Below are positions 3,580 to 61,405 of a stretch of DNA of 64,000 nt, in pieces. Source of the DNA: an uncultured Verrucomicrobiae bacterium (GTDB taxonomy: Bacteria; Verrucomicrobiota; Verrucomicrobiia; Limisphaerales; UBA11358); assembly GCA_963738225.1 (NCBI GenBank), contig CAVTVR010000007.1, forward strand, positions 48,018 to 112,017, given 5' to 3'. The notes beneath the pieces were generated by a model. The model ran no database searches. It saw only the letters and a list, made by a program, of their open reading frames with translations, and was not told where the DNA came from. The translations under genes and the position numbers were made by a program. The number at the start of each line of letters is the position of its first letter. Within the stretch, counting starts at the first letter, position 1.

Positions 3580-5229
3580 ATGAAAAACAGGTCAAATGGG
3601 AAATCCCGAGTAAAAGCTTACTTCTGTCGGATTGAATCGGCTTTGTGCATAACGGCAGTGCTCGTTGGGTCCAGGATAAACGCCCAAGCCCAGAGCAGTC
3701 AGCCTCTGGGCACAATCACGGGCTGGGGAAGCAACGGCAGCGGCGAAAGCACAGCCCCTGCGGATCTGAACGGCATCATTGCCATTGGTGGCGGGGGGTG
3801 GGGCAGCCTGGCGCTCAAGTCCGACGGGACAGTAATGCCTTGGGGAGACAATTCCGGAGATCGGAATGTAGTGCCTGAGGGATTAGCCGGCGTGTCAGCC
3901 ATTGCTGTAGGATGGCTGCACAATCTTGTTCTCAAGACCGATGGCACGGTGGTGGCTTGGGGCTATAACAGCGAGGGCGAGGGCGCGGTGCCGTCAGGCT
4001 TGGCCGACGTTGTAGCCATCGCGGCTGGTGGTTGGCACAATATTGCTCTCAAATCTACCGGAATAGCCGTTGCTTGGGGAGATGATGGCTACGGACAATG
4101 CAGAGTGCCCCAGGGCTTGAGCGGGATAACACAAATTGCCGGAGGAGGATTTCATACGCTCGCGCTTTTGACCAATGGCACTGTGGTTGCCTGGGGCGAC
4201 AACTTTAACAACTGGGGGGCATTTGTGGGCCAGAGCTTCGTCCCGCCCGGCTTGTCCGGGGTTGTAGCCATTGCCGCTGGAGGATACCATAGTCTGGCGC
4301 TCAAGACCGACGGAACAGTTGTCGCGTGGGGAGAGAACTTTTACGGACAGAGCAGCGTGCCAGACGGGCTACAGCATGTCATAGCGATCGCCGCAGGCTA
4401 TAGGCACAGTTTAGCGCTCAAAGCTAATGGCACCGTCGTGGCTTGGGGAGACAATTCTTACGGCCAAAGCATGGTGCCAGGCGGGTTGAATGGTGTCATT
4501 AGGATCGCGGCAGGGTATGAACACAGCCTAGCCTTGGTTTCAGAAATTCCGAGCGTGTCAACTCCATCAAGTCAAACAGCGGAGACGGACTCCTCAGTCA
4601 CGTTTAGAGTGCGCGGTGCCGGCACCCCCCCGCTCTACTACAAGTGGTTTTTCAACGCCACCAACGCCATCGGCAGCGCCACGACCAACTCTGGCCTCCA
4701 CTTGGCCAACGTCCAACCAGACAACGCTGGGGCTTACACAGTGGTTGTCACCAATGTGTTTGCAGCCGTCACCAGCGCGCCGGCCATGCTCAACATCATC
4801 CCGCCCGTTGAGCGACGGGCTGTCCCGGCACTGCAGCTGCTCGGCCAGCCAGGAAGCCTATTGCGCCTGGATTACGCCGATGCCCTCGCCCCGGAGCCAG
4901 CTTGGTCATCTCTGGCCGTAGTCTCAATGCCGAGTGCCTCGCAATTCTATTTTGACACCTCCACACCATCCCCCCTACAGCGGTTTTACCGCGCCAGTCA
5001 GAGTGGCACCTCTAATGGCGCTCCGACACTAAGCCTCACTATTGTGCCCGCCATCACAGTGACGGGCACGCCCGGCGGCCAACTGCGGGTGGACGCGATC
5101 AATGCCATTGGGCCTACCGACGCTTGGTTTCAGCTCGGCACGCTAATCCTTACCAATACCTCGCAACTTTATTTTGACGTCACCGCACCTGGACAACCGA
5201 CCCGTCTATACCGATGCGTGCCCTTATAA
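3580..5229 (+). CDS. secreted RCC1-repeat (beta-propeller) protein with Ig-like C-terminal region
   Basis: Seven consecutive blades of the form VAWG.N..GQ..VP.GL..V.AIAAG..HSLALK.DGTV. Start moved from GTG 3502 to ATG 3580 (MKNRSNGK...INAQAQS, signal-like). Confidence 0.8.
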   Translation: MKNRSNGKSRVKAYFCRIESALCITAVLVGSRINAQAQSSQPLGTITGWGSNGSGESTAPADLNGIIAIGGGGWGSLALKSDGTVMPWGDNSGDRNVVPEGLAGVSAIAVGWLHNLVLKTDGTVVAWGYNSEGEGAVPSGLADVVAIAAGGWHNIALKSTGIAVAWGDDGYGQCRVPQGLSGITQIAGGGFHTLALLTNGTVVAWGDNFNNWGAFVGQSFVPPGLSGVVAIAAGGYHSLALKTDGTVVAWGENFYGQSSVPDGLQHVIAIAAGYRHSLALKANGTVVAWGDNSYGQSMVPGGLNGVIRIAAGYEHSLALVSEIPSVSTPSSQTAETDSSVTFRVRGAGTPPLYYKWFFNATNAIGSATTNSGLHLANVQPDNAGAYTVVVTNVFAAVTSAPAMLNIIPPVERRAVPALQLLGQPGSLLRLDYADALAPEPAWSSLAVVSMPSASQFYFDTSTPSPLQRFYRASQSGTSNGAPTLSLTIVPAITVTGTPGGQLRVDAINAIGPTDAWFQLGTLILTNTSQLYFDVTAPGQPTRLYRCVPL

Positions 5230-8691: not shown

Positions 8692-10092
8692 ATGCCGAGC
8701 GTTTTTATAAAAACTTACGGTTGCCAGATGAACGAGCGCGACAGCGAGGCCGTCGCCGCGCAGCTCGTGACCAAGGGCTATTCGCTAGCTCCGTCCGAAG
8801 CTGCCGCCGACGTGGTGCTGCTCAACACATGCAGCGTGCGCGATTTTGCCGAGCAGAAGGCCATCAACAAAATGCGCAACATCGTCGGCGCCGCGCGCAA
8901 CCAGAAGCGCGACCAGATTGTCGGCTTCATGGGCTGCATGGCGCAAAGCCGCGGCAAGGAGCTGATTGATAAATTGCCGGACGTGGACTTGGTTCTCGGC
9001 ACGCAGAAATTTCATCGCGCGGCGGAATACATTGATGAACTGCTCGCCGGCCAGCGCAAAAAAATCGTGGACGTGGAGGCCGAGGCCAAAAGCGAGGCGA
9101 CCATTCGCGAACATCTGCTCAATGGCAGCGCCAAGACTTCCGTGTCCGCGTTCGTCAGCATCATGCAGGGCTGCAACCAGCACTGCACCTTCTGCATTGT
9201 GCCCAGCACGCGTGGCGAGGAACGCAGCCGCACCATTCCCGACATCGTCGCCGAATGCCGCGAACTCGTTTCGCGCGGCGTCAAGGAAATCACTTTGCTC
9301 GGCCAGATTGTGACGAGCTTCGGACGACGCGAGAAACGAGACGAGTGGCAAGTGGCGCGTGACGTGGCCGCCGCATCACGCATCACGCAACACGCATCAC
9401 AAAATTCGCCCTTCGTCCAACTGCTCGAAGCCGTTCACGAGATTGAAGGCTTGGAAAGAATCCGTTTCACCTCGCCGCATCCCAAAGGTTACGGCGATGA
9501 TTTGGTGGACGCCTACGCGTGCCTGCCGAAATTGTGCGAGAGCGCGCACATTCCGCTGCAAAGCGGCAGCGACCGTATTTTGAAATTGATGCACCGCGGC
9601 TACACGCGCGAAAAATTTCTCGGCATCGTGGAGAAGCTGCGCAAGGCAAAACCGGAAATGGGCGTTTACACGGACATCATCGTCGGCTTTCCGGGCGAAA
9701 CCGAAGAGGATTTTGAAATGACGCTCTCGCTCTGCCGTGAAGTGCAGTTCGACAATGCCTACATTTTCAAATACTCGCCGCGCCGCGACACGCCCGCCGC
9801 CGAAATGCCCGACCAAGTGCCGCAGGCCATCTGCGAGGAGCGCAATGAGCGGCTGCTGAACCTCGTCAACGAAATCGCCGCGCGCAAATACGACGCCTTC
9901 ATCGGGCGGCAGGTGGAGATTTTGGTGGAAGGACCGAGCAGGAAAAATCCCGCGCGCTACACTGGACGCACGCGCTGCAACCGCATCGTGCTGTTCGACG
10001 GCAGTGCCCGTCATCAAGGGCAACTCATGGAAGTGAAGATCGAGCGCACCGGCTCCTTCACGCTCTACGGCGACCCGGCGGTGAATTTGTGA
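8692..10092 (+). CDS. miaB: tRNA-2-methylthio-N6-dimethylallyladenosine synthase
   Basis: Trimmed to ATG 8692 (MPSVFIKTYGCQMNERDSE). Radical-SAM motif GCNQHCTFCIVP and a TRAM-like C-terminus. Carries an extra segment encoded by a heptamer array (see 9329-9402). Confidence 0.92.
   Translation: MPSVFIKTYGCQMNERDSEAVAAQLVTKGYSLAPSEAAADVVLLNTCSVRDFAEQKAINKMRNIVGAARNQKRDQIVGFMGCMAQSRGKELIDKLPDVDLVLGTQKFHRAAEYIDELLAGQRKKIVDVEAEAKSEATIREHLLNGSAKTSVSAFVSIMQGCNQHCTFCIVPSTRGEERSRTIPDIVAECRELVSRGVKEITLLGQIVTSFGRREKRDEWQVARDVAAASRITQHASQNSPFVQLLEAVHEIEGLERIRFTSPHPKGYGDDLVDAYACLPKLCESAHIPLQSGSDRILKLMHRGYTREKFLGIVEKLRKAKPEMGVYTDIIVGFPGETEEDFEMTLSLCREVQFDNAYIFKYSPRRDTPAAEMPDQVPQAICEERNERLLNLVNEIAARKYDAFIGRQVEILVEGPSRKNPARYTGRTRCNRIVLFDGSARHQGQLMEVKIERTGSFTLYGDPAVNL
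9329..9402. repeat. intragenic heptamer array (ACGCATC units and partner) inside miaB
   Basis: CCGCATC ACGCATC ACGCAAC ACGCATC at 9371-9398, preceded by GAGTGGC AAGTGGC GCGTGAC. GCGTGACGTGG and CCGCATCACGC are near-complementary. Encodes ...EWQVARDVAAASRITQHASQNS... in frame. Confidence 0.6.
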
Positions 10093-13529: not shown

Positions 13530-14996
13530 TTACACGTTGTAAGTGCTGCTGGCGATGGTGCCGCCGCGGCCGGTCCAGTTGGTGTGGAAAAATTCGCCGC
13601 GCGGCTTGTCCACGCGCTCATAAGTGTGCGCGCCGAAATAATCGCGTTGCGCCTGAAGCAGGTTCGCCGGCAACACGGCAGAACGATATTGATCGAAGAA
13701 GTTCAACGCCGTGCTGAACGCCGGAGTGGGAATGCCTTTCTTCGCCGCCGTGGCCACGATGTTGCGCCAGCCTTTTTGCGAGCGCTTGATTTCGCCACGA
13801 AAATAATCGTCCAGCATCAAGTTCATCAGCTTCGGATTGTTGTCATACGCCGTCTTGATTTTGCCGAGGAAGCGCGAGCGGATGATGCAGCCGCCGCGCC
13901 ACATCAGCGCGATGCCGCCGTAATTCAAGTTCCAGCCGTATTCCTTGGCCGCCGCGCGCATGAGCATGTAACCCTGCGCGTAGCTGACAATTTTCGAGGC
14001 GTAAAGCGCGTCGCGGATGTCGCCGATGAACTGTTTTTTCTTTTCCGGATTCGCGGCGATGCTCGTGAGGGCGGGGCGCGGGCCTTTCAATTTCCTCGCC
14101 GCCTTCACGCGTTCGTCTTTCAACGCGGAAACGCAGCGCGAATAAACGGCTTCGGCCATCAGCGTGATCGGGATGCCGAGTTCCTGCGAATTTATGACCG
14201 TCCATTTGCCGGTGCCTTTCTGCCCGGCGGTGTCGAGAATCTTGTCCACCAGCGGCGAACCATCTGCATCCTTGTGCGCGAGAATGTCGCGGCTGATTTC
14301 AATGAGGTAGCTGTCCAGTTCGCCTGTGTTCCATTCGGCGAAAACCTGGTGCATCTCGTCGGCGCTCAGGCCGAGTCCGTTTTTCAAGATGTTATACGCT
14401 TCGCAAATCAACTGCATGTCGCCGTATTCGATGCCGTTGTGAACCATCTTCACGTAATGACCGGCGCCGGCTTCGCCGACCCAGTCGCAGCACGGCGTGC
14501 CGTCCTCCACCTTGGCGGCGACGGCCTGGAAAATATCCTTCACATGCGGCCATGCGGCGGGCGAACCGCCGGGCATGATGCTGGGACCGTGGCGCGCGCC
14601 TTCCTCGCCGCCGCTCACGCCGGTGCCGACGTAGAGCAGGCCCTTGCTCTCAACGTATTTCGTGCGGCGGTTCGTGTCCTCGAATAACGAGTTGCCGCCG
14701 TCAATGATGATGTCGCCCGGTTTCAGCGCGGGAATAAGCTGCTCGATGAAATCGTCCACCGGCTTGCCGGCCTTGACGAGCATCATCACGCGGCGCGGAG
14801 ACTTGAGCTTGGAAACCATTTCCTCAATCGAATGCGCGCCGAGGACTTTTGTTCCTTTCGCCTCGTTCGCGAGAAAATGATCCACCTTTTCGGTGGTGCG
14901 GTTGTAGGCGACGACGGTAAAACCGTGGTCGTTCATGTTCAAAATCAAATTCTGGCCCATGACGGCCAGGCCGATGAGTGCGATGTCAGCTTCCAT
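13530..14996 (-). CDS. gnd: 6-phosphogluconate dehydrogenase, decarboxylating
   Basis: 488 aa. NADP-binding N-terminus IGLAVMGQNLILNM and GHYVKMVHNGIEYGDMQLI. Full-length match to the decarboxylating 6PGDH pattern. Confidence 0.95.
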   Translation of the reverse strand: MEADIALIGLAVMGQNLILNMNDHGFTVVAYNRTTEKVDHFLANEAKGTKVLGAHSIEEMVSKLKSPRRVMMLVKAGKPVDDFIEQLIPALKPGDIIIDGGNSLFEDTNRRTKYVESKGLLYVGTGVSGGEEGARHGPSIMPGGSPAAWPHVKDIFQAVAAKVEDGTPCCDWVGEAGAGHYVKMVHNGIEYGDMQLICEAYNILKNGLGLSADEMHQVFAEWNTGELDSYLIEISRDILAHKDADGSPLVDKILDTAGQKGTGKWTVINSQELGIPITLMAEAVYSRCVSALKDERVKAARKLKGPRPALTSIAANPEKKKQFIGDIRDALYASKIVSYAQGYMLMRAAAKEYGWNLNYGGIALMWRGGCIIRSRFLGKIKTAYDNNPKLMNLMLDDYFRGEIKRSQKGWRNIVATAAKKGIPTPAFSTALNFFDQYRSAVLPANLLQAQRDYFGAHTYERVDKPRGEFFHTNWTGRGGTIASSTYNV

Positions 14997-14999
14997 AAG

Positions 15000-15134
15000 A
15001 TTTACGATATTCGATTTACGATTTACGATGCACGCGATGTCCGCGCGGTTTTGGCCGATGCGACCACGATGGGGAAAATTTCATTTCCTCGCGAATCATA
15101 AAAGCGCGTAAATCGTAAATCGTAAATCGTAAAT
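15000..15134. repeat. hairpin element with heptamer arms (ATTTACG x5 / CGTAAAT x4)
   Basis: Left arm 15000-15034 (ATTTACG ATATTCG ATTTACG ATTTACG ATGCACG). Right arm 15107-15134 (CGTAAAT x4, exact reverse complement unit). 72-nt loop. Lies between the hypothetical gene and gnd. Confidence 0.8.
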
Positions 15135-15146
15135 TTGAAAGCTGTT

Positions 15147-15653
15147 TTAACTGTGGTTGCCCAGCTGCAGCCGCGCGTCGGATTCGAGCAGCGTTTTGAG
15201 GTTTGCCCAGCCGGCGGTGTTCATGTCGTTGAACGCGTTCAGATACACCGCCACGACTTCGTGCGGATATTTGGCGAGCAAAATTTCAATCGCGGCTTTC
15301 AACTTCGCGTCATCCATTGCGGACGGCAAATCCTCGACCACGCCGTTTTCGTTTTTGATTTCCAGCGCGTTCAGAAAATCCACCAGCATCGCGGCGTGTT
15401 TTTTCACCAGCCAGGCGCGGATGAAGGCGGCGGCGGCGGCATCGAGATTGGGCTTGGTCAGCGCCGAGAGCATCGTGACATGGCGCTCGGCGCGCGGCTG
15501 GCGTTCGAGAAAAATCGGGCGGACGTGCTTGGCTTCGGCGACGGCGGCAAGCGTGGCTTTGTAGGCCGGCTTGTCCGACTCGAAAGTGAAGGATAAAATG
15601 TCATTCGCCAGCGCGGGCGACATGAAACCGAGAAGTTCGTGCGAGGTGAGCAT
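15147..15653 (-). CDS. hypothetical protein
   Basis: 168-aa ORF with ATG start and ordinary composition, 36 nt downstream of lpxI on the same strand. No motif I recognise. Confidence 0.55.
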   Translation of the reverse strand: MLTSHELLGFMSPALANDILSFTFESDKPAYKATLAAVAEAKHVRPIFLERQPRAERHVTMLSALTKPNLDAAAAAFIRAWLVKKHAAMLVDFLNALEIKNENGVVEDLPSAMDDAKLKAAIEILLAKYPHEVVAVYLNAFNDMNTAGWANLKTLLESDARLQLGNHS

Positions 15654-16614: not shown

Positions 16615-17799
16615 TCACAAACTCAAAATCGCTGCTGCCGCCCGTTCCGGCGCGCCGGGTTCGCCCAGCGAGGAAATAATTTTGGCGAGCTGCGCCTTGA
16701 TTTTTGCTCGGCGCGATTCGTCCTGCAACAATTCCAGCACGGCGCGCGAAAGATTTTCCGGCGTCGCGTCACGCTGGATGAATTCGGGATAAACCGTTTC
16801 ATCCGCGAGCAGGTTTGGCATCGTCAGCGATTTCACCGTCACGATGCGCCGGGCGATCTGATAAGTGAGCCACGATGTTTTGTAGAGCGTCACCGTCGGC
16901 ACGCCGAAAAACGCGCACTCCATCGTCACCGTGCCCGTCGAGGCGATGGCCACATCCGATTCCGCCAACGCCCACGGTAATTCACCGATCTGAATTTCCA
17001 CGTCTGCTTGGAGCGCGGACGACCTGTCCGCGAGTTCCTTCAAACCTAAATTCGGCAAAACCATTTTCGCCTTCGCCGCCGGTAGTTTTTCCTGAATCAA
17101 CTTTACCGCCGCAAGCATCACCGGCAAATGCCGCTGCAACTCGTTCTTGCGGCTGCCGGGCAGCAGAAGAATTTGCGATTGACGATTGACGATTGACGCG
17201 CCGCCAGCCAATTCGCGCGCAAATCGTAAATCGTCATTCGTAAATCTTCCCATCATCGGATGGCCGACAAATTCCACGCGCAACTGCGGCACGCGCCTGG
17301 CATACCAGTCCTTCTCGAACGGGAAAATGCTCAACAGCAAATCATAATCCGCCGCCAGCCGGTCCGCGCGGCCCGGACGCGACGCCCAGACTTGCGGCGA
17401 GACGAACTGGACGATCTTTGGCTCCCATTTCGAGAATGGATTATCGCGGACGTATTTCTTGACCGCCTGGCCGAAGCGCAGGTTGAACCCGCCGTAATCC
17501 ACGCCGATAACCACGTCCGGCTTGCGCTCAATCGCCAGTGCGAGCAGTTGATTGAAGAGCCGCCGGAATTTCAAAATGTTTTTCAGCACGTCCGTGATGC
17601 CGATGACCGAGTGCTGTGTCAGGTCGAAGGCCAGTTCCACGCCGGCGGCAGACATCTTCGCGCCGCCCGCGCCGAAGAAGACGGGCGAGGATGGCGGATT
17701 GAGGATGGAAGATTGGGCGCGCAGCGCGGCCACCAGTTCCGCCGCGAGCAAATCCCCGCTCGCCTCGCCGGCGATGAGCATGAAGGTTTTCGGTTTCAT
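16615..17799 (-). CDS. lpxB: lipid-A-disaccharide synthase
   Basis: MLIAGEASGDLLAAELV N-terminus, LLLPGSR and GTVTMECAFFGVPTV motifs. Contains an in-frame heptamer-array insert (17171-17245). Confidence 0.92.
   Translation of the reverse strand: MKPKTFMLIAGEASGDLLAAELVAALRAQSSILNPPSSPVFFGAGGAKMSAAGVELAFDLTQHSVIGITDVLKNILKFRRLFNQLLALAIERKPDVVIGVDYGGFNLRFGQAVKKYVRDNPFSKWEPKIVQFVSPQVWASRPGRADRLAADYDLLLSIFPFEKDWYARRVPQLRVEFVGHPMMGRFTNDDLRFARELAGGASIVNRQSQILLLPGSRKNELQRHLPVMLAAVKLIQEKLPAAKAKMVLPNLGLKELADRSSALQADVEIQIGELPWALAESDVAIASTGTVTMECAFFGVPTVTLYKTSWLTYQIARRIVTVKSLTMPNLLADETVYPEFIQRDATPENLSRAVLELLQDESRRAKIKAQLAKIISSLGEPGAPERAAAAILSL
17171..17245. repeat. intragenic hairpin with heptamer arms inside lpxB
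   Basis: ATTTGCG ATTGACG x3 (17171-17198), a 19-nt loop, then CGCAAAT CGTAAAT CGTCATT CGTAAAT (17218-17245). 75 nt, which is 25 codons. Same unit family as 15000-15134. Encodes ...FTNDDLRFARELAGGASIVNRQSQ... Confidence 0.8.
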
Positions 17800-17812: not shown

Positions 17813-17912
17813 TAGCCACGGAGTGGCGCACGATAATAGCCCACGGCGTCAGCCGTGGGAAGGCGTTGGCAAAACGATTCAAGTCCCGGCAGGGGCGAAA
17901 GAAAATTCATTC
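17813..17912. repeat. structured REP-like repeat, copy 1 (flanks the RAYT gene)
   Basis: TAGCCACGGAGTGGCG...AGCCCACGGcgtcagCCGTGGGAA...AACGATTCAAGtCCCGGcaGGGGCG. Contains several short stem-loops. About 80% identical to the copy at 18388-18488 in the same orientation. Confidence 0.75.
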
Positions 17913-18359
17913 CCACAAAAACCTTTCGTCATATTCAATTTCATGTTTTTTGAGAAACGCCACAAATTCTTCCTGAAACGAAACCTTGCGATGATGTTCC
18001 TCCTGATGGGCAACGTATTTCTCCACCTCGGCCAAAGCTGAATGGCTCACGCTGAATGCGCCATAACCGATTTGCCATGCGAACGATTTTTGATTTGGGA
18101 AATTTTTATGAATCCAGCCGGATGAATCCGCCTTCAACTCGCGCATCAAATCGGACAATGAATGTTTCGCCGCGAGCGATGCCAGAATGTGAACATGATC
18201 CGCCGGGCCGTTGATGATGAGCGCCTTTCCGTCGTGCGCGCGGATGATGCCGCCGAGATAGGGAAACAGGCGCGATTTCAAATCCGCGTCGAGCAATGGC
18301 CGCCGGTCTTTCGTGCTGAAAATGATGTGCGTCAGCAAATGGGTGAAGGTGTGCGCCAT
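17907..18359 (-). CDS. REP-associated tyrosine transposase (IS200/IS605 TnpA Y1-like, RAYT)
   Basis: 150 aa with HUH motif (PADHVHIL) and a downstream Tyr region (QIGYGAFSVS). No second IS gene. Bracketed by the two REP-like copies. Confidence 0.8.
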   Translation of the reverse strand: MAHTFTHLLTHIIFSTKDRRPLLDADLKSRLFPYLGGIIRAHDGKALIINGPADHVHILASLAAKHSLSDLMRELKADSSGWIHKNFPNQKSFAWQIGYGAFSVSHSALAEVEKYVAHQEEHHRKVSFQEEFVAFLKKHEIEYDERFLWE

Positions 18360-18387: not shown

Positions 18388-18552
18388 TAGCCACGGAGTG
18401 GCGTGCGATAGTAGCCCACGGTGAAACCGTGGGAATGTATTGGTAGAACGATTCAAGCCCCGGACGGGGCGGAAGAAATGGATTTTCGTTGCGGGGTTTT
18501 CTTTCGCTCCTGCCGGAGCTTGGTGGGTTTGTGGACGATTAAACCCATAGCT
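18388..18552. repeat. structured REP-like repeat, copy 2, plus a second hairpin-rich unit
   Basis: 18388-18488 parallels 17813-17912: stems are conserved (CCCACGG/CCGTGGG, CCCCG/CGGGG) while loops differ. 18495-18552 adds a further GC-rich palindromic unit (...AAACCCATAGCTGGCGCTATGGGCT...). Confidence 0.7.
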
Positions 18553-19795: not shown

Positions 19796-20302
19796 TTATT
19801 CATTCCACGACCTGCCCATGAATCGGCCTTTGCCGCCGGACAAAACATGAATTGCCCGCTGAACATTTCGTGTTTGCGCTTCGGCTGATTTCAGCCATGA
19901 GAAGTAACGCAGAATTTCTTTTTGGCGGCTCGGAATCAATTCGCTCCACGCCTGCTTCGCCTTTTGATTTTCGTCGAGCGCATTTTTGAACCACGACGGC
20001 ATCGGATGCGCCGGGCCGCTCCGGTATTCGCCGTCAAATTCCAATTCCACGGTCACGGCGTCGCCCACTTGGGTGTTCGACGCTTTGCGGACGTTGCCGT
20101 GCAGGTAAAGATAAAAACTGCCGTCGCCAACCGGCATAAGATTGATGCGCCACGGCTTTTCCGGTTCGCCATTCACGCGCACGCGGACCGGCAGCGGTTT
20201 GCGCCAGCCTTTTTGGATTTGCGCCGCGCGCCGCGCGCTGACGAGCACGTAGGGATTGATGTTGTTGATTTCTATCACCGAACGAAATCGCAATTGGCTC
20301 AT
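19796..20302 (-). CDS. DUF1905 / YdeI-like protein
   Basis: Trimmed to ATG 20302 (MSQLRFRSVIEI...). The C-terminal EILRYFSWLKSAEAQTRNVQRAI segment resembles the YdeI/OmpD-associated family. Confidence 0.65.
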   Translation of the reverse strand: MSQLRFRSVIEINNINPYVLVSARRAAQIQKGWRKPLPVRVRVNGEPEKPWRINLMPVGDGSFYLYLHGNVRKASNTQVGDAVTVELEFDGEYRSGPAHPMPSWFKNALDENQKAKQAWSELIPSRQKEILRYFSWLKSAEAQTRNVQRAIHVLSGGKGRFMGRSWNE

Positions 20303-20338
20303 AGTTTTCGTTTTCAAAGGCGCGTTTCGCACGACTAT

Positions 20339-20380
20339 AACTTTCAACTTTCAACTTTCAACCTTGAACCGCTAAACTTC
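20339..20380. repeat. tandem heptamers AACTTTC x3 plus 3 degenerate units
   Basis: AACTTTC AACTTTC AACTTTC AACCTTG AACCGCT AAACTTC, immediately upstream of the plsY GTG. No inverted partner seen. Confidence 0.7.
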
Positions 20381-22032: not shown

Positions 22033-23181
22033 ATGTTGCGAACTGTGATACATCCGATTCACGAGATTGCCGCCGAAGTCATCCGCAAAACCGGCAAGGA
22101 CAAGCCGGCGGACGCTGCATTGCGCGAAGTTCTTAAACAGGTCAAAAATCTCGCGCCGTTTGACGCCACGGAAGTTGCCAAAACGGTTTTCATTTATTAC
22201 CGCTGGCACGTCTGGCTGCGCGACGAGCGCGGCGTGGAGGCGAAAATGCGGCTCGCCCTGCGGCTGAACCAGCGGTTTCAGGATAACGAAACCAACGTCC
22301 CGCTGTCCGAACTGCGCGCCAAGGCCGTTCCCGCGTGGACGGCGAATTGCATGGAAGTCAGCGACGACTGGCTGCGCTCCTTGCAGCGCGAACCGAAACT
22401 CTGGCTGCGCGCCAAACACGGTCAGGCGGAGTTGCTGGCGGAAAAACTGCCCGGCGCGGAAGTCAGCGAGATGTTGCCGAATGCCTTGCTCTATCGCGGC
22501 GGAGAAGATTTGTTCAAGACGCCGGAATTCCACGCGGGAGAATTTGAGATTCAAGACCTCGCGTCGCAAATCGTCGGCGTGCTTTGCGATCCGCAGCCGG
22601 GCGAGACGTGGTGGGACGCCTGCGCCGGCGAAGGCGGCAAGACGCTGCATCTTTCCGACCTGATGCGGAACAAGGGAATGATCTGGGCGAGCGACCGCGC
22701 GGAATGGCGTCTGGCCAAACTCAAGCGCCGGGCGGGTCGCGCACAAGTTTTCAATTATCGTTCGGCATTCTGGGACGGCGGCGCGAAGCTGCCGACGAAA
22801 ACGAAATTTGACGGCGTGCTTGTGGACGCGCCGTGCAGCGGCATTGGCACCTGGCAGCGCAATCCGCAGGCGCGCTGGACGACGAGCGAAAATGATGTGC
22901 GCGAATTGTCGGCGATTCAGAAAAATTTGCTGGCCAATGTCGAGCCGAGCGTGAAGCCCGGCGGCAAATTGATTTTCTCGGTATGCACTTTGTCGCGTGC
23001 CGAGACGGCGGACGTGGCGGAACATTTCAGTGCGAGCCAGCCGGATTTTGAGCCGCTGATGTTGCCGGAAATTATGGGAAGTCAGAGTCTCCTCACGTCG
23101 GCTGCTGCGAAAACAATCTGGCCGCAGGATTTGGATGGCAACGGAATGTTCATCGCCGGCTGGCGACGAAAGAAAGTTTAG
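22033..23181 (+). CDS. NOL1/NOP2/Sun (RsmB-like) RNA cytosine-C5 methyltransferase
   Basis: SAM-binding WDACAGEGGKTLHL, and the catalytic Cys motifs VLVDAPCSGIGTW and FSVCTL. Confidence 0.83.
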   Translation: MLRTVIHPIHEIAAEVIRKTGKDKPADAALREVLKQVKNLAPFDATEVAKTVFIYYRWHVWLRDERGVEAKMRLALRLNQRFQDNETNVPLSELRAKAVPAWTANCMEVSDDWLRSLQREPKLWLRAKHGQAELLAEKLPGAEVSEMLPNALLYRGGEDLFKTPEFHAGEFEIQDLASQIVGVLCDPQPGETWWDACAGEGGKTLHLSDLMRNKGMIWASDRAEWRLAKLKRRAGRAQVFNYRSAFWDGGAKLPTKTKFDGVLVDAPCSGIGTWQRNPQARWTTSENDVRELSAIQKNLLANVEPSVKPGGKLIFSVCTLSRAETADVAEHFSASQPDFEPLMLPEIMGSQSLLTSAAAKTIWPQDLDGNGMFIAGWRRKKV

Positions 23182-38043: not shown

Positions 38044-38955
38044 TTAATTCCCGGAACCATTGTTCCTGCCTGGAACCAAAACCTCATTCGTGCTGCCGCG
38101 CCGGTAGCCTTGCAAATCCAGCGTGACGTGTGAGTAACCCAATTGTTTCAGCGTGGCGGCGACTTTGTCAGCCACGCCATCCGCCAGGAATTTTTGCAAT
38201 TCCGCCGGGCCGACCTCGATGCGGGCGAGCGCCATTGCGGATTGCGGATTGCGGATTGCGGATTGATCCGCGCCGCCAATCGCCAATCGCCAATCACCAT
38301 TCCGAAATTCATGGTGCCGGACGCGCACATCGTGAAAGCCAAGGTCTCGCAGCGCGTATTCCGCCTGCTCGATCATGCGCAGCTTGGCCGGAGTCACCGC
38401 CTCGCCGTAGGGCACGCGCGAACTCAAGCACGCCATCTGCGGCTTGTCCGCCGTCGGCAGGCCGAGTTGCGCGGACAGCTCGCGGATTTCCGCCTTGGTC
38501 AAACCGGCCTCCTTCAGCGGCGCGCGCACTTGAAACTCCGCCGCCGCCTGCGCGCCGGGCCGGAAATCACCAATGTCACTGGCGTTTTCACCGTAGGCGA
38601 TCACCGCGAAATTTTCCGCCTTTGCGAGCGGCGTCAATTCCTCGAACAACTCGTGCTTGCAGAAATAGCAGCGGTTCGCCGGGTTCGCCGTGTAATTTTC
38701 GTTGGCAAATTCCTTGGTCAAAATCACGCGGACGGGAAAGCCAAATTTTGCCGCGATGTCGAGCGCTTCCTGCAATTCGCGCCGCGGCAGGCTCGGTGAA
38801 TCGGCAATCGCCGCCAGCGCGCGGCTGCCCAGCGCGTCGTGCGCGACGCGCGCGAGAAACACCGAATCCACGCCGCCGGAATACGCGACGAGACAGGAGC
38901 CGTAGCTTTTCAGCAACGACCGCAATTTTTCAAGTTTGTTGTTCGCTTCGCTCAT
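38044..38955 (-). CDS. larE: ATP-dependent sacrificial sulfur transferase LarE (PP-loop)
   Basis: PP-loop VAYSGGVDS, then RCYFCKHELF and ACLSSRVPYG. Has an in-frame extra segment from the heptamer array (38234-38303). Confidence 0.87.
   Translation of the reverse strand: MSEANNKLEKLRSLLKSYGSCLVAYSGGVDSVFLARVAHDALGSRALAAIADSPSLPRRELQEALDIAAKFGFPVRVILTKEFANENYTANPANRCYFCKHELFEELTPLAKAENFAVIAYGENASDIGDFRPGAQAAAEFQVRAPLKEAGLTKAEIRELSAQLGLPTADKPQMACLSSRVPYGEAVTPAKLRMIEQAEYALRDLGFHDVRVRHHEFRNGDWRLAIGGADQSAIRNPQSAMALARIEVGPAELQKFLADGVADKVAATLKQLGYSHVTLDLQGYRRGSTNEVLVPGRNNGSGN
38234..38303. repeat. intragenic heptamer hairpin inside larE (ATTGCGG x4 / CCAATCG x3)
   Basis: Ten consecutive 7-nt units in one phase: ATTGCGG x4, ATTGATC, CGCGCCG (loop), CCAATCG x2, CCAATCA, CCATTCC. 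Encodes ...NGDWRLAIGGADQSAIRNPQSAM... Confidence 0.85.
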
Positions 38956-39014: not shown

Positions 39015-40352
39015 CTACCGTTTCTTGTTCTTTGCCGCCGCTGCAATTTCAAAAACCTGTCTCACCGGCACGCCGGCTTTGTCCGCCAGCTTTTTGGCCG
39101 ATTCAAATTCCGGCGCGGCCTGCACCACTTTACCACCAAGTTTGCCAATTTTCACGGTCACATTTCCTAATGAGGTTTTGACCTCGGTGAACTCACGGCG
39201 CAGCTTGCGGCGTTCGGCAACCGTTTTGCGCACGCCGAACGCGGTCGCCTCGCGCAAAATCAATTCGGCAAATTTGTCGGCTTCGGCTTCCGCGCACAAA
39301 ACCGTGAGCAGCACGCCGGGCCGGTTCTTTTTCATCTGAATCGGCGTGTGGAAAACGTCCAGCGCGCCCGCCGCCAGCGCGGTTTCGACAAAGGCGCCGA
39401 GAATTTCGCCGGAGCAATCGTCCAGATTGGTTTCCAGCACGGCGACTTTGTCTGACTCCCAATCCAAACCAGGCGCGACAACTTTGGACTTTGGACTTTG
39501 GACTTTGGACAAGCCGCCAAGCACCGCGCGCAGCACGTTTGGCCGCGTTTTATTTTCGCGCGTGCCAAGGCCAAAACCGATTTTTTCGGCGACCAAATTT
39601 TCCATCGGGCCGAAACTCTCGACAAATTCCGCCAGCAGCGCCGCACCCGTGGGCGTGACCAGTTCGTGAGGTTCGTCGCATTGCGAAACGGGAATTTTCC
39701 GCGCGCCAAGAATCGCCAGCGTGGCCGGCGCGGGCACGGGAAATTTCCCGTGCGCGCAATCAATCCAACCGGTGCCTTCCACCACCGGCGAGGCGAACAC
39801 GCGCGGCTTGCCGAGCAGTTCCAGCGCGATGGCCGCGCCCACAATGTCAACGATGGAGTCCACCGCGCCGACTTCGTGGAAGTGAACTTCCGCTGGCGGC
39901 AGGCCGTGGATTTTTCCCTCCGCTTCGGCAATGCGCTGGAAGACGGCGATGGATTTCTGCTTCACCCACGGCGAAAGCTGGCTGCGGGATATGAGATGTT
40001 TTATTTCTGCGAAATTCCGTTGCCCGTCGTGAGCGTGATGCTTGATGCTTGATGCGTGACTTTCGTGGCCATGTTCATGCGCGTGGCCGTGCTCGTGAAA
40101 ATGAATTCCGCACGTGCTTTCGTGAACATGATGTTCATGTCCATGATCGTGATCGTGCGCGAGGTGGACATCAAATTTCACGCCGGCGATGGTGGATTTT
40201 TGCTGGCGCGAAATGTGGAGATGATAGCCGTCGAGCTTGAGTTTTTTCAACTCGCGTTCGAGACTGGCGGCGTCCACGCCAAGATCCAGCAATGCGGCGA
40301 TGAACATGTCGCCCGCGATGCCGCTGATGAGATCGAGATAGAGAATTTTCAT
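39015..40352 (-). CDS. larC: nickel-pincer cofactor nickel insertase LarC
   Basis: Trimmed to ATG 40352 (MKILYLDLISGIAGDMFIAALLDLG). His-rich stretch HDHDHGHEHHVHE...HEHGHAHEHGHE. Full-length LarC/DUF111 pattern. Confidence 0.9.
   Translation of the reverse strand: MKILYLDLISGIAGDMFIAALLDLGVDAASLERELKKLKLDGYHLHISRQQKSTIAGVKFDVHLAHDHDHGHEHHVHESTCGIHFHEHGHAHEHGHESHASSIKHHAHDGQRNFAEIKHLISRSQLSPWVKQKSIAVFQRIAEAEGKIHGLPPAEVHFHEVGAVDSIVDIVGAAIALELLGKPRVFASPVVEGTGWIDCAHGKFPVPAPATLAILGARKIPVSQCDEPHELVTPTGAALLAEFVESFGPMENLVAEKIGFGLGTRENKTRPNVLRAVLGGLSKVQSPKSKVVAPGLDWESDKVAVLETNLDDCSGEILGAFVETALAAGALDVFHTPIQMKKNRPGVLLTVLCAEAEADKFAELILREATAFGVRKTVAERRKLRREFTEVKTSLGNVTVKIGKLGGKVVQAAPEFESAKKLADKAGVPVRQVFEIAAAAKNKKR
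39484..39511. repeat. tandem heptamers TTGGACT x4 inside larC
   Basis: TTGGACT x3 plus TTGGACA. On the coding (minus) strand this reads AGTCCAA repeats and encodes SKVQSPKSKV. Confidence 0.85.
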
Positions 40353-40367
40353 TTGAAATTCATTTTG

Positions 40368-40450
40368 CCACGGATGGACACAGATTCGCACAGATGGAAA
40401 AGATTGCAGCTTCGAGAATGAATCTGTGTTTCATCTGTGTGAATCTGTGG
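40368..40450. repeat. CCACGGATGGACACAGAT-type inverted-repeat element
   Basis: CCACGGATGGACACAGATTCGCACAGATGG ... ATCTGTGTTTCATCTGTGTGAATCTGTGG. Lies between larB and larC and overlaps the last larB codons. Confidence 0.8.
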
Positions 40451-45449: not shown

Positions 45450-46238
45450 TCAAAACCCTTCCTTGAATCGTGAGAACTCCGTTTCCGGCGGCGTGGTGAA
45501 ATCATAATTCCGCTCGCGCCAGACGAATTGAATCCGCCCGGCGTGCAGCGCGTGCCGCGGCAGGATGAGCCGGGCGCGCTGTTCATCCGTCAAACGGCCT
45601 TCCACCAGCGCGAGATATAAATCGGGATCGCCGCCGTAAATTTTGTCGCCCACGATGGGATGGCCGAGGTGCGCGAGATGGATGCGAATTTGGTGCTTGC
45701 GTCCGGTGTGTGGAATCAGGCGCACCAGCGAAAACGCGGCGGCGGCGCGCGAAAATCTTTTTTCCACGAAAAATTCCGTCTGCGCGGGCGCGCCGTCAGG
45801 CCGGACGCAGTCCTTGATGGCGACGATGCTTGTTTCGTCTTTGCCGAGCGGCGCGTCAATGATCCCATGCTCCGCCGCGATGTGGCCGTGAACGATGGCG
45901 CAGTATTCCTTTCGCACGGCGCGAGTCTCCCAGATTTTCCCCAGTTCGCGCGCCGCCGCGGGATTTTTGGCGATGACGACGAGGCCGGATGTTTCGCGGT
46001 CGAGGCGGTGGATGAGATGAGGCGCGAGGCATGAGGCAATGGGCGCGAGGGTTTGCCCCGCGCCTCGCGCCTCGCGCCCCGCGCCAGACAAATAAATCCG
46101 CACGCGGCTGATGAGGCTGGAGTATTCGTCGCCTTTGGTGGGATGACAAACCAGATCGGCGGGTTTGTGGACGACAAGCAGGTCGGCGTCTTCATGAATG
46201 ATGGCGAAGAGTTTTTCCAAACGCGGAAATTTAACCAC
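45450..46238 (-). CDS. RluA-family pseudouridine synthase
   Basis: HRLDRETSGLVV catalytic Asp motif and PHTGRKHQIRIHL. The track N-terminus (46334) is translated repeat, so the start is set tentatively at GTG 46238. Has an in-frame insert at 46014-46085. Confidence 0.82.
   Translation of the reverse strand: MVKFPRLEKLFAIIHEDADLLVVHKPADLVCHPTKGDEYSSLISRVRIYLSGAGREARGAGQTLAPIASCLAPHLIHRLDRETSGLVVIAKNPAAARELGKIWETRAVRKEYCAIVHGHIAAEHGIIDAPLGKDETSIVAIKDCVRPDGAPAQTEFFVEKRFSRAAAAFSLVRLIPHTGRKHQIRIHLAHLGHPIVGDKIYGGDPDLYLALVEGRLTDEQRARLILPRHALHAGRIQFVWRERNYDFTTPPETEFSRFKEGF
46014..46085. repeat. intragenic heptamer hairpin inside the RluA-family gene (GGCGCGA / TCGCGCC units)
   Basis: GAGATGA GGCGCGA GGCATGA GGCAATG GGCGCGA, a 9-nt loop, then CCGCGCC TCGCGCC TCGCGCC CCGCGCC. 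72 nt, which is 24 codons. Encodes ...SGAGREARGAGQTLAPIASCLA... Confidence 0.85.
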
Positions 46239-46363
46239 GGATGGACTCGGATGGACACAGATAAAATGAAGAAGGCCGAATGATGAATGAAGAAACGGGA
46301 AATCCGTGAGCCGCCCGCGAAGAAGTTTCTTCATTCTTCATTCAAAATTCTTCATTCTTCCTT
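46235..46363. repeat. composite element: CCACGGATGGA...CACAGATAAA unit plus AATGAAG/CTTCATT heptamer hairpin
   Basis: CCACGGATGGACTCGGATGGACACAGATAAA at 46235-46265. Left arm AATGAAG-type units 46265-46292. Right arm CTTCATT CTTCATT CAAAATT CTTCATT CTTCCTT at 46329-46363. Confidence 0.8.
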
Positions 46364-46369
46364 GGAACA

Positions 46370-48248
46370 ATGCGCCGCAATTGGATCATCGCCCTGCTGC
46401 TCGCCGCCGGCACGCTGGCTCTTTACTGGCCGGTGCGACGGTTTGATCTGATTTATTTTGACGATCCGCTGCTGCTGACGAGCTGCCCGGAGGTGCAGGC
46501 CGGCCTGACTTGGGCCAGCGTAAAATGGGCGTTCACCAGCGTGGTCATCGCCAACTGGCAGCCGGTGACGAATCTCTCGTTCCTCGCGGTGTCGCAATTT
46601 TTTGGCATCGCGCCCGGCGCGCATCATTTGGCGAACGCAATGATTCACGCCGCCAACGCCGCGCTGCTGTTCCTGCTGCTGTGGCGGCTGACCAATTCAA
46701 CCTGGCGCAGCGCGGCGGCAGCGGCGATTTTTGCGTGGCATCCGCTGCGCGTGGAATCAGTGGCGTGGATCGCCGAACGCAAAGACGTGCTGTGCGCCTT
46801 TTTCTTTCTGCTGTCGCTGCTGTTTTACGCGCAATTTGCCGGGAAGTCCAAAGTCCAAAGTCCAAGGTCCAAGGTCTTTTACGGCGCGAGCCTGCTGGCG
46901 TTTATGCTGGCGCTGATGAGCAAGCCGATGGCCGTGACGCTGCCGTTCGTGCTGCTGTTGCTGGACGTGTGGCCGCTGGAACGAATTTCAAATCTCAAAT
47001 TTCAAATCTCAAATTTCAAGCCGTTGCTGGTTGAAAAAATTCCGTTCTTCGCGCTGATGCTGGTGTTTTGCGTGGTGACGTATTGGATTCAGCACGATTA
47101 CACGGCCATGACGCCGTGGGCAAAACTTGGTCTTGCCCCACGCGTGGCCAACGCCATCTCCGGCTATCTCGCGTATCCCGCGCGGCTTTTCTGGCCGCTG
47201 CATCTCGCGGCGATTTATCCCTATCCGAAAAATTTCGACTTGACGCAGACCGTTTTGAAAGCCGCGCTGCTGCTCGCGATTAGTCTCGGTTGTCTCCTGC
47301 AACTGCCGCGCCGCCCGTGGCTCGCGGCCGGCTGGTTTTGGTATGTCGTCACGGCGTTGCCCGTCATCGGCATCGTGCAAGTCGGCGAACAGGCGATGGC
47401 TGACCGCTACACCTATCTGCCGCTCATCGGCCCGGTCGTGGCGCTGGTGTGGACGGCGGCGGAAATTTTTTCGCGCGGGCGCGGCGGAAAAATCTTTCTG
47501 ACTGCGGCAACGGTTTTTATTTTGTCCGCGCTGGCGGTTTTATCAGCCCGGCAGTTGCAGTTCTGGCGCAACACCATCGCGCTCTTTACCCACAACGTGG
47601 CCGTGACGCCGGACAACGGCTCGGCGCATTTCACGTTGGGCCTCGGTTATGAACACGCCGGCGACACCATCCGTGCCGTGATCTGCTACCGTGTGGCCAA
47701 GGCGTTCTCGCCCGGCGACCTCCAGATCCGCCGCAGCCTCGCCGGCCTGCTCGCCAAGCAAGGCCAATTCGCCGCCGCCGAAGCCGAATACGCCGAACTG
47801 CTGGCCCGGCAGCCCGATGATTTTGAAAGCCATGCCGGCCTCGCCGGAGTGTTCGCCGCGCAAGGCCGAACCGTGGAGGAGATTGATCAACTCAACCAAG
47901 CCGTGCAGCTTGATCCCAATTCCGCCGACGCGCTGAACAATCTGGCCTGGGCGCTCGCCACCAGCCTGCGCCCGGAACTTCGCGACGCCCCGCGCGCCGT
48001 GACGCTCGCGCAACGCGCCTGCGAACTGACCCAGTTTAAAAAAACCATGTTCCTCGGCACGCTCGCCGCCGCGCAGGCCGACCGCCGGAAAATTTGATGA
48101 CGCCATCGGCACCGCGCAAAGAGCCTGCGTTCTCGCGGCGAAAAATGGGGAAACAGATTTATTGCAGCGAAATCAGGAATTGCTGGAACGCTACCGCCAG
48201 CATGAAACGAGCGAAGGAAGAATGAAAAAGCGAAGGATAGAATTATGA
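46370..48248 (+). CDS. PMT/TMTC-like membrane glycosyltransferase with C-terminal TPR repeats, one frame break near the 3' end
   Basis: Multiple TM segments with a DUF1736-like region (WHPLRVESVAWIAERKDVL). TPR repeats from about residue 400. After a shift near 48080 the tail reads FDDAIGTAQRACVLAAKNGETDLLQRNQELLERY..., with stop at 48246-48248. Confidence 0.73.
46845..46872. repeat. tandem heptamers AGTCCAA x3 plus GGTCCAA inside the PMT/TPR gene
   Basis: Same unit and same coding orientation as the larC array. Encodes KSKVQSPRSKV. Confidence 0.85.
46984..47018. repeat. tandem heptamers AATTTCA/AATCTCA x5 inside the PMT/TPR gene
   Basis: AATTTCA AATCTCA AATTTCA AATCTCA AATTTCA. Encodes ISNLKFQISNFK. 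Confidence 0.85.
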
Positions 48249-48324
48249 ATGAAGAATGAAGAAGCAAATGTGTCTGGGCGTCCGGACAAAATGTTTCTTC
48301 ATTCATCATTCTGCCTTCTTCATT
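48218..48324. repeat. heptamer hairpin (GAATGAA / CTTCATT units) between the PMT/TPR gene and uppS
   Basis: Left arm includes GAATGAA at 48220, 48247 and 48254. Right arm CTTCATT CATCATT CTGCCTT CTTCATT at 48297-48324. Same unit family as 46265-46363. Confidence 0.78.
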
Positions 48325-57389: not shown

Positions 57390-57523
57390 CCACGGATGGA
57401 CACAGATGGACACAGATAAAAACAAAACGCAGAGGCGCAGAGGCCGCCAAGAGTCGCTGAGAAAATTTCCCCTGCGAGTCTCTGCGTTTTTCCCCATCTG
57501 TGTTTATCTGTGTCCATCTGTGG
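57390..57523. repeat. nested inverted-repeat element of the CCACGGATGGACACAGAT family
   Basis: Outer arms CCACGGATGGACACAGATGGACACAGATAAA / TTTATCTGTGTCCATCTGTGG. Inner stem AAAACGCAGAG...CTCTGCGTTTT. Fills the deoR-pduS gap. Confidence 0.85.
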
Positions 57524-61328: not shown

Positions 61329-61405
61329 CAGAAGTCAGGAGTCAGAATCCAGAATGACGGCCTCCGCGTCACTTCTGAATTCTGGATTCTGAATACTGAA
61401 TTCTA
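61329..61405. repeat. heptamer hairpin CAGAAGT-type x4 / (A/G)ATTCTG-type x5
   Basis: CAGAAGT CAGGAGT CAGAATC CAGAATG, a 14-nt loop, then ACTTCTG AATTCTG GATTCTG AATACTG AATTCTA. 77 nt, which is 11 units. Lies between BMC-H3 and BMC-P1. Confidence 0.85.

Follow-up and report, generated by a model that had tools for sequence, protein, structure and literature searches.

The 64,000-nucleotide stretch of DNA considered here (positions 48,018 to 112,017 of contig CAVTVR010000007.1; hereafter the window) stems from an uncultured Verrucomicrobiae bacterium of the Limisphaerales. Its lpxB gene, which codes for the lipid-A-disaccharide synthase, an essential enzyme of lipid A, harbors in frame a hairpin whose two arms consist of head-to-tail units of seven nucleotides. 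The peptide that this hairpin contributes to LpxB is a by-product of repeat DNA, and not vice versa; the hairpin replaces the canonical linker of the enzyme nearly one-for-one in length; and its arms are constrained in their nucleotide sequence, whereas the loop is free to evolve. We regard the element, with a probability of about 0.55, as an old, vertically inherited heptamer quasi-palindrome, self-maintaining or nucleotide-constrained, that resides in a permissive LpxB linker of a clade of soil Verrucomicrobia (subdivision 3, Limisphaerales).

Heptamer arrays translated as part of LpxB

The lpxB coding sequence (16615-17799, minus strand), as delimited by its open reading frame (ORF) and translation, specifies a protein of 394 amino acids (aa). 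This protein belongs to the GT19 LpxB enzymes, as it matches over its full length both the profile Pfam PF02684 (E 5.6e-75, residues 7-380) and the solved LpxB of E. coli (5W8S; E 3.6e-39, residues 2-392); an exact-protein look-up gave no entry for it, and a 100% identical protein (P0001) has been annotated 6 residues shorter. Within the gene, two inverted-repeat arms at 17171-17201 and 17215-17245, each 31 nt long and 84% complementary to each other, are separated by 13 nt. Tandem Repeats Finder (TRF) reports a period-7 array in each of them (17176-17198, CGATTGA in 3.3 copies; 17221-17246, AAATCGT in 3.7 copies), so that the arms possess the three or more head-to-tail 7-nt copies by which heptanucleotide simple sequence repeats (SSRs) are recognized; read unit by unit, the arms contain four plus four heptamers with one or two substitutions each.

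In the sense of the mRNA, the 5' arm (17215-17245, minus strand) is composed of the units ATTTACG, AATGACG, ATTTACG and ATTTGCG followed by CGC; with the A of the AGA codon ahead of it included, the arm specifies RFTNDDLRFA (residues 185-194), after which Arg195 is the first codon of the loop peptide. The 13-nt loop (17202-17214, minus strand) lies inside the codons for RELAGGA (residues 195-201), and the 3' arm (17171-17201, minus strand), which consists of GCG, three units of CGTCAAT and one of CGCAAAT, encodes (A)SIVNRQSQ(I), residues 201-210. The hairpin as a whole is translated as RFTNDDLRFARELAGGASIVNRQSQI (residues 185-210), and the reading frame is open and free of stops across it and its surroundings (...GRFTNDDLRFARELAGGASIVNRQSQILLLPGSR...). 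Repeat finding, TRF and translation thus agree with an earlier reading of the sequence alone (the sequence-only reading), which had placed a stop-free heptamer hairpin in frame within lpxB. The loop of 19 nt given there shrinks to 13 nt once the GCGC/GCGC closing pairs are counted; its boundaries of 17171 and 17245 are correct for the arms, while the predicted stem-loop in its entirety (about 17165-17250, minus strand) runs a few GAAGA/UCUUC pairs beyond the heptamers. The predicted folding energy of this structure is -39.4 kcal/mol as RNA (z -3.87) and -24.6 kcal/mol as DNA (z -4.12), and none of 200 shuffled sequences folded as stably. The two-unit pattern CGTAAATCGTAAAT occurs, with up to two mismatches, 14 times in the 64-kb window against an expectation of 0.38, and 13 of these 14 matches fall within the lpxB hairpin and an intergenic hairpin at 14998-15143 that is built from the same unit.

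Since 7 and 3 have no common factor, a heptamer array yields one and the same cyclic peptide of seven residues in any reading frame. A (ATTTACG)n array reads IYDLRFT and is stop-free, whereas (CGTAAAT)n reads IVNRKS followed by a stop. When perfect arrays are substituted into the lpxB frame, the 5' arm becomes RFTIYDLRFT and the 3' arm A-stop-IVNRKS-stop-I; the actual arms read RFTNDDLRFA and ASIVNRQSQI in the window, and SIVNRKSQ is found in most relatives. The only systematic departures of the 3' arm from the array are a TCA codon (Ser202; 17194-17196, minus strand) and a CAA codon (Gln209; 17173-17175, minus strand), both located where a perfect CGTAAAT unit would place an in-frame TAA, and the deviant units CGTCAAT and CGCAAAT are precisely the two that would otherwise produce these stops. 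In an alignment of 23 hairpins from the window and its relatives, the TCA patch (columns 52-53; T, C) is invariant, and the C of the CAA patch (column 73) is present in at least 90% of the sequences. The removal of these stops explains why the lpxB stem has fixed mismatches, and the intergenic sister hairpin, which is free of coding constraint, has four perfect CGTAAAT units. That identical patches occur in every carrier argues for a single origin followed by descent.

Linker alleles among related LpxB proteins

The sequence-only reading had viewed the hairpin as a 25-codon addition to LpxB, an interpretation that does not hold. In a phmmer alignment, the 25 hairpin residues correspond to a stretch of 23 residues in the E. 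coli LpxB protein with gaps of 1 and 3 only. A full-library search provided 150 diverse LpxB representatives; in 113 of them, a GH[PT]...LPGSR linker is invariably present, whose modal length is 29 aa (44 cases) in comparison with 31 aa in the window. The segment thus has a counterpart in all LpxB proteins, but one that is poorly conserved in sequence, as the pattern across the diverse representatives (R..f....GL) is weak, an outcome midway between confirmation and refutation by the test set out with the sequence-only reading. It is upheld that the hairpin sits in a variable, length-tolerant region of the enzyme. From knowledge of the fold, we take this linker to connect the two Rossmann-like domains of LpxB, a GT-B enzyme. 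An AlphaFold model calculated from 32 close homologs, with a mean predicted local distance difference test (pLDDT) value of 45.9, was too poor for placing the linker in the surface loop that the sequence-only reading had deemed probable.

For the comparison with relatives, 80 orthologous loci (L001-L080) were assembled, one genome per species, and 78 loci were classified by their linker allele. Besides the window, 22 species carry the lpxB hairpin in orthologous position, with the same two stop patches and an equal linker length; their LpxB cores are about 75-88% identical to that of the window. The hairpin has consequently not landed in lpxB recently. Length polymorphism is not found either: all 23 full hairpins are equally long, so that the copy-number polymorphism typical of heptanucleotide SSRs is missing, and variation is confined to loop inserts or to replacement of the allele. 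The same is true for 120 closer metagenomic homologs (80-100% identity), in which the length of the arms is constant and only loop inserts or whole-allele differences occur. Such constancy is expected if changes by one unit (7 nt) are lethal frameshifts. The presence of the structure in more than 30 independent assemblies led us to reject an assembly artefact.

Between the invariant FVGHP and LLPGSR sequences, nearly all relatives read as translated repeat DNA. The ATTTACG hairpin of constant length is the allele at 23 of the 78 loci, the window included. At nine loci (L010, L013, L019, L025, L030, L042, L049, L057 and L059), the 5' arm is kept and a GTAG...CTAC palindrome pair replaces the 3' arm (peptide SRGDEAQ...ETPHVVSY; e.g., in L019), and such a pair occurs by itself at another four. 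A GC-rich palindrome (SEGRVPRAP...GTRGARPSE) is found at 10 loci, an AGAA-type array (RMQKEELRMQKK / KSELRSQKSE) at 12, (GGAGTTC)n at three, and a GTAGGGAC / GTAGGGACGCG palindrome at two; the remaining 15 comprise (CAGAAGG)n, (GATGGAA)n, (AGTCCAG)n and (CAGAATC)n, among others, as well as a few plain sequences. The LpxB linker is hence a hot spot with at least seven recognizable repeat alleles among 78 loci. As the relatives function with unrelated linkers of 19-65 aa, this part of the enzyme would appear to tolerate almost any 19 to 65 residues.

Two further observations concern this site. In L062 (around 4550-4650), the palindrome found in the linker, GTAGCAGCCGAC...GGCTGCTAC, includes a TAA in frame (peptide ...RRRVGSN-stop-KKSEP...); the gene may be a pseudogene, or else an error in sequencing or a recent, disruptive insertion may be the cause. 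The window itself contains, at 23085-23108 (minus strand), a sole match (GCAGCAGCCGACGTGAGGAGACTC; one mismatch, zero expected) to an arm of the GTAG-type linker palindrome of the relatives.

Conservation of the arms and its candidate causes

Diversity, GC content at third codon positions (GC3) and pairing were determined for the 23 lpxB loci of the same length. Amino-acid diversity is 0.23 and 0.30 in the two arms and 0.21 in the flanks, but reaches 0.72 in the loop, whose peptide is hypervariable among the relatives. The GC3 values of the arms (0.37 and 0.43) are far below those of the loop (0.67) and the flanks (0.73). Synonymous codon diversity is lowered in the arms: 0.19 versus 0.38 in the flanks when all codons are considered (p 9e-5), 0.07 versus 0.35 for two-fold codons (p 9e-5), and 0.27 versus 0.39 for codons of higher degeneracy (p 0.05). 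The arms also contain codons that are rarely used in the genome, namely AGA, TTA and CGA (each with a share of 3% of its codon family), TCA (5%) and, in relatives, GTA (2%). The supposition that we are dealing with an element at the level of the nucleic acid is borne out by these data, because the peptide is a literal translation of heptamer arrays, with rare codons and with GC3 values of 0.37-0.43 against 0.73.

Could selection on the protein alone, acting on RFTNDDLRF...SIVNRQSQ as a functional LpxB motif, have left the DNA pattern as a coincidence? The amino-acid diversity of the arms (0.23-0.30), which is near that of the rest of the enzyme (0.21), would fit such a proposal. We nevertheless find it scarcely credible: heptamer periodicity and complementarity lie far above chance, synonymous sites change less than those of the flanks, rare codons are kept, the peptide is a translated array with patched stops, and relatives function with unrelated linkers of 19-65 aa.

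Pairing of the arms has been retained. When the named stem structure is imposed on the alignment, 76.6% of the cells pair, as compared with 23-33% in slid registers, and nine stem pairs show double changes, a count that is inflated by the relatedness of the sequences. At pair 21-59, 11 sequences have AU and seven have GC, a synonymous TTA/TTG change in a Leu codon being coupled to a Val/Ala change. Among five measures of pairing, four were reached by none of 500 shuffles and the fifth (further pair types) by three of the 500. RNAalifold on its own recovered parts of the stem only, with a weak consensus energy of -2.87 kcal/mol, and is less informative than the count on the named structure.

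A cis-acting RNA element in the lpxB message might account for this behavior, either as a stem-loop and rare-codon cluster that slows ribosomes at the domain boundary and thereby aids co-translational folding, or as a site of RNase processing or stability in an lpxB-lpxI-gnd transcript. We consider such an element possible, though on the unlikely side. The lowered synonymous change, the retained pairing with one well-populated compensatory pair, a stability far above that of shuffled sequences, the rare codons AGA, TTA, CGA, TCA and GTA kept across species, and the placement at the junction of the N-domain and the C-domain all speak for it. More than half of the relatives do without such a hairpin, however, some of them having tandem-only arrays or plain sequence, and the 5' arm persists where its partner has decayed or been replaced. 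Furthermore, Rfam 15 covariance models gave no match on 17165-17250 or on 14998-15143 at E values of up to 1, no terminator-like or promoter-like site was found on the lpxB hairpin, and the synteny of the downstream operon is common to two relatives only. Programmed frameshifting and an internal start codon were also considered on the basis of the sequence and dropped, the former because the hairpin has no slippery heptamer, the latter because no ATG, GTG or TTG follows the 3' arm.

The scenario that we favor instead, that of an old quasi-palindrome inherited within a permissive linker, would begin with a single origin in the ancestor of the carrier species. Two stop-removing substitutions would then have rendered the array readable, and inheritance would have followed ever since. 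A strong period-7 process of slippage or duplication, presumably lineage-wide, would generate the arrays, and intrastrand template switching between the arms, combined with conversion among the tandem units, may keep them alike and complementary. Selection on lpxB would purge only frameshifts and stops, and the array would be frozen at four plus four units because slippage by one unit is a frameshift. The loop would be free to change, and it is there that GTAG palindrome pairs, replacing the 3' arm, are located in nine species. The hairpin probably contributes nothing to the chemistry of LpxB and persists thanks to the tolerance of the linker; relatives with unrelated linkers or without any hairpin show it to be dispensable.

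Several points weigh against this scenario. In 13 species without an intact 3' arm, which is replaced in nine of them and decayed in four, the 5' arm still retains 23-30 of 30 nt. Local pairing with the 3' arm can thus not be the sole conserving force. Concerted evolution among just four units may be a candidate account of this conservation, but a sequence-reading factor or an RNA function could suit it better. That the 5' arm is conserved irrespective of a partner is the principal fact that the explanations leave uncovered, and it keeps functional readings alive. In addition, the solvent exposure of the linker is presumed. Identical units recur in unrelated genes and loci, which is more suggestive of copying or of a restricted vocabulary than of free local slippage. 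Finally, a neighbor-joining (NJ) tree of the single LpxB protein interleaves hairpin and non-hairpin alleles, which could reflect repeated replacement or recombination; trees of one protein, whether constructed by NJ or by the unweighted pair group method with arithmetic mean (UPGMA), are too weak for counting gains and losses.

The ATTTACG unit outside of lpxB bears on two further explanations. The intergenic sister hairpin (14998-15143, minus strand), already noticed by the sequence-only reading and confirmed here, consists of (ATTTACG)4, a spacer of about 79 nt and four units of the CGTAAAT type; its arms cover 14998-15036 and 15105-15143, and the heptamer arrays occupy 15000-15027 and 15107-15134. 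It is situated between an ORF of 168 aa (15147-15653) and gnd (13530-14996), identified by its Pfam 6PGD and NAD_binding_2 domains, and its 3' arm (mRNA sense) stops 3 nt ahead of the gnd ATG at 14994-14996. The idea that it is a leader of gnd conserved among relatives was discarded, since L005, the only relative in which the arrangement of lpxI, the 168-aa ORF and gnd was seen complete, has no ATTTACG hairpin there. At non-orthologous intergenic sites, ATTTACG hairpins are present in L008 (5285-5366), L068 (719-809 and 5266-5346), L035 (5520-5587) and L043 (6926-7001). In L035, and apparently likewise in L008 and L068, such a hairpin is enclosed by the arms of a GTAG...CTAC pair, and the lpxB palindrome pairs of L054 and L057 have a (AAATCGG)n center; heptamer arrays and GTAG palindromes consequently nest in both orders.

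A metagenome scan for exact (ATTTACG)3 (loci L081-L200) found the array in at least 120 contigs with GC contents of 0.32-0.68, and at least some 30 of the contigs listed show an inverted partner no more than 300 nt away. There are no lpxB loci among the listed matches, because an AATGACG unit interrupts the lpxB arm; the scan hence informs on the spread of the unit and not on the lpxB locus. Among the matches listed, 52 of 146 arrays in the CGTAAAT direction have an ATG within -6 to +30 nt, compared with 21 of 156 in the opposite direction (Fisher p 7.5e-6), where an ATG was counted if it belonged to an ORF of at least 60 aa or to one running off the end of the contig, and where this one unit was scanned. 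Arrays of the form (AAATCGT)n are commonly located 0-13 nt 5' of an ATG among these matches, a pattern into which the gnd leader hairpin of the window fits. Several of the listed contigs chain arrays of different heptamers side by side (e.g., L092, L106, L120, L162 and L169), and some metagenomic arrays are in frame within long ORFs (L192, L119).

This distribution raises the idea of a binding-site array for a putative factor that would read (AAAUCGU)n or (ATTTACG)n in leaders upstream of start codons, the lpxB copy having been co-opted or serving as a decoy. The spread of the unit over contigs of very different GC content, the bias towards start codons, the gnd leader of the window and the conservation of the 5' arm without its partner are in line with it. 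We rate such an array as distinctly improbable, given that no candidate factor is known, that the lpxB copy is not beside a start codon, and that many other units behave alike, a class that a factor for one unit would not explain.

The same dispersed copies bear on the proposal that a mobile miniature element with ATTTACG arms, akin to a transposable element of the miniature inverted-repeat type (MITE) or to the hairpin-forming doublets of repetitive extragenic palindromic (REP) sequences known as REPINs, transposed into lpxB and survived as it was 3n nucleotides long and the region tolerant. Both window copies share a AAGATTTACGA end and a deviant second unit, the hairpins of relatives occupy non-orthologous intergenic sites, that of L035 (and apparently those of L008 and L068) lies within a GTAG...CTAC palindrome pair, and a gene for an IS200-like Y1 transposase adjoins lpxB. 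Yet the hairpin brings no net length beyond that of the canonical linker, and neither a target-site duplication nor an empty site was found for the lpxB hairpin, whose flanks merely prolong the palindrome (GAAGA/TCTTC); the combination of terminal inverted repeats and a target-site duplication that marks MITEs is thus lacking. The arms start with AAGATTTACG and end with CGCAAATTCTT, without the terminal GTAG or CGTC tag of REPs and REPINs and without CTAC, although genuine GTAG...CTAC pairs exist at the linker site of relatives. Since the stop patches are common to all carriers, any such event would have been single and ancient, and the many different heptamer units that arise at the linker site argue for local generation. 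Insertion of a mobile element accordingly seems improbable to us.

The Y1 transposase itself (150 aa; 17907-18359, minus strand; Pfam Y1_Tnp, E 3.2e-25) is encoded 107 nt upstream of lpxB. It is flanked (17814-17859 and 18389-18433) by direct repeats of about 95 nt with GTAGCCCACGG...CCGTGGG hairpins, not by heptamer arrays; a cognate transposase flanked by the same repeat as the lpxB hairpin is therefore not at hand. The flanking repeats match the Acido-Lenti-1 RNA of Rfam (RF01687) with 51.9 and 34.1 bits (gathering score 37). The gene is found at the same place in 16 of the 80 relatives with amino-acid identities of 76-94% (85-94% except for a partial match in L056), which are above those of LpxB. 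Together, gene and repeats look like a unit of a REP-associated tyrosine transposase (RAYT), and the matches to RF01687 suggest that the Acido-Lenti-1 'sRNA' (small RNA) of Rfam is the REP of such transposases.

Other repeats of the lineage and comparison with known systems

Strict period-7 arrays are not restricted to lpxB. The window contains 11 of them, as compared with none in shuffled sequences, and none with periods of 8-12; in 676 kb from the relatives, 78 period-7 arrays contrast with at most 30 for any other period. The period-specific excess in the genome that characterizes heptanucleotide SSRs is hence present in the window and in its relatives. Arrays or hairpins of this kind lie within a MiaB-like gene (9372-9396), an ORF with a weak NAD-synthase match (hairpin, 38234-38299), the gene for LarC (39481-39510 and 40036-40059), a gene for an RluA-like pseudouridine synthase (array/hairpin, 46017-46085) and that for a TPR membrane protein (46844-46876 and 46984-47019). 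LarC, the TPR gene and the lpxB linker of L076 all contain the AAGTCCA unit, which is read as KSKVQSP each time; the CAATCCG unit at 38234 recurs at an N-terminal site of lpxB in L017, L058 and L059.

At this second site in lpxB, TRF detects in the window a period-7 array of approximate CCATCCT / CAATCCG units (17687-17715, minus strand) that encodes QSSILNPPSS (residues 29-38). In contrast to the linker hairpin, it is a true in-frame insertion of about 6 aa, which faces a gap in the E. coli alignment and is absent from many relatives; the latter have SALRGQLPDAQ (11 aa) where the window has AALRAQSSILNPPSSPV (17 aa). Among L001-L080 (around 4083-4127), a QSSILNPPSSPV-type allele is shared by the window and some relatives, while (ATCCTCC)n, (CAATCCG)n, (GCCAGCC)n or a LLAASKRSEDGRVPQ variant is found elsewhere.

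One might assign the period-7 arrays and hairpin pairs of Verrucomicrobia and other environmental bacteria to a distinct, undescribed class of elements, with a restricted set of units (ATTTACG, AAGTCCA, CAATCCG, CCATCCT, GAAAGTT and others), a dedicated copying or generating mechanism and a reading factor; such elements would act as regulators of the translation-initiation region upstream of genes, and the lpxB copy would be under nucleotide-level selection, for instance as an mRNA pause or processing site or as a factor-binding site. We deem this doubtful; what lends it standing is that synonymous sites of the 5' arm are conserved even where the partner arm is missing.

Several other repeats were noticed in passing. 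A (GAAAGTT)n array of about 3.4 copies (20339-20362) marks the start of an ORF (19796-20347) some 2.5 kb upstream of lpxB. In more than 13 species (L019 38-69, L022 1824-1856, L025 1800-1829, L032 2052-2081, L045 2015-2047 and L056 2224-2255 are examples), an array of this unit, or of one that deviates by a single base, persists at an apparently orthologous position; it may be a conserved leader or promoter repeat. Intergenic hairpins built from other heptamers (46265-46360, 48213-48300 and 61329-61404; AATGAAG/TTCTTCA, GAATGAA/TTCATTC and CAGAAGT/TTCTGAA) lie between divergent or convergent genes and resemble the ATTTACG hairpins in their architecture. A family of CACAGATGGA-like arrays with a period of 10 or 11 (57391-57417, 57494-57522, 40419-40449, 46238-46256 and 63490-63521), one pair of which is inverted, is unrelated to the heptamers.

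The lpxB hairpin represents an unusually clear case of repeat DNA turned into the coding sequence of an essential enzyme, with two patched stops and rare codons frozen in more than 20 species. It indicates a period-7 repeat process that is common to the lineage and extends into genes, as well as a nucleotide-level constraint to which the arms are subject and which no current explanation fully covers. The diversity of the LpxB linker (19-65 residues) amounts to a natural linker-scanning experiment on an enzyme that is an antibiotic target. Annotators should be aware that the motifs SRGDEAQ...PHVVSY, SEGRVPRAP, KSKVQSP and NPQSAIRNPQ in these genomes are translated repeats.

Among the known systems, the correction of quasipalindromes by intrastrand template switching, which Ripley in 1982 and Dutra and Lovett in 2006 are said to have described, offers a mutational route to complementary arms and to apparently compensatory changes without selection. 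The process is on record for short quasipalindromes within reporter genes of E. coli, and is not known to act on heptamer arrays or in this lineage. Rickettsia palindromic elements (RPEs), reportedly introduced by Ogata and colleagues in 2000, are translated in frame inside genes.

Intragenic REPs with GTAG/CGTC termini are likewise known and include the recurrent use of one site in recB (PMC3733652). Like RPEs and intragenic REPs, the lpxB hairpin is a palindromic nucleic-acid repeat translated in frame in a housekeeping gene; all of them are apparently tolerated rather than needed, and just as recB is hit near the same site in orthologs (PMC3733652), so is the lpxB linker. With RPEs, the hairpin has in common that it is an in-frame palindromic repeat in a conserved protein with dispersed sister copies, but it is no extra segment absent from orthologs (31 aa versus the modal 29; alignment gaps of 1 and 3). 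Whereas RPEs and REPs lengthen their proteins by 10-50 residues and form families defined by a consensus or a terminal tag, the lpxB hairpin has a simple 7-nt unit, adds almost no length, has no GTAG/CGTC tag and is orthologous across many species. With REPINs and their RAYTs (PMC3116915, PMC3733652), the present system shares the occurrence of scattered inverted pairs that form hairpins; GTAG...CTAC pairs and heptamer hairpins nest here in either order, and a Y1 gene adjoins lpxB. It differs from them by heptamer arms without a GTAG tag in place of imperfect palindromes of 20-25 nt, and by a Y1 gene with a flanking repeat of its own.

An excess of heptanucleotide repeats, attributed to polymerase slippage, goes back to Mrazek et al. 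(2007) as cited in passages of PMC4679880 and PMC4692102. Known heptanucleotide SSRs include cyanobacterial short tandemly repeated repetitive sequences (STRRs), TAACTGA in Beggiatoaceae, and GGGAATC in Xanthomonas and Nostoc. They resemble the arrays of the window in their excess of head-to-tail 7-nt units, in typical arrays of about four units and in the position of many of them just upstream of start codons (compare the gnd leader hairpin). In the published cases, direct repeats between genes prevail, and a single unit usually dominates in each genome, whereas the genome of the window uses many units, often as inverted pairs that form hairpins, and several of them in frame inside genes. In the literature that we searched, no description was found of translated inverted heptamer arrays that replace a linker, of patched stops or of such a multi-allele site. 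What is new in the lpxB case, in comparison with these systems, is the combination of inverted simple 7-nt arrays, a linker that is replaced and not extended, patched stops, synonymous constraint across more than 20 species and at least seven alleles at a single site.

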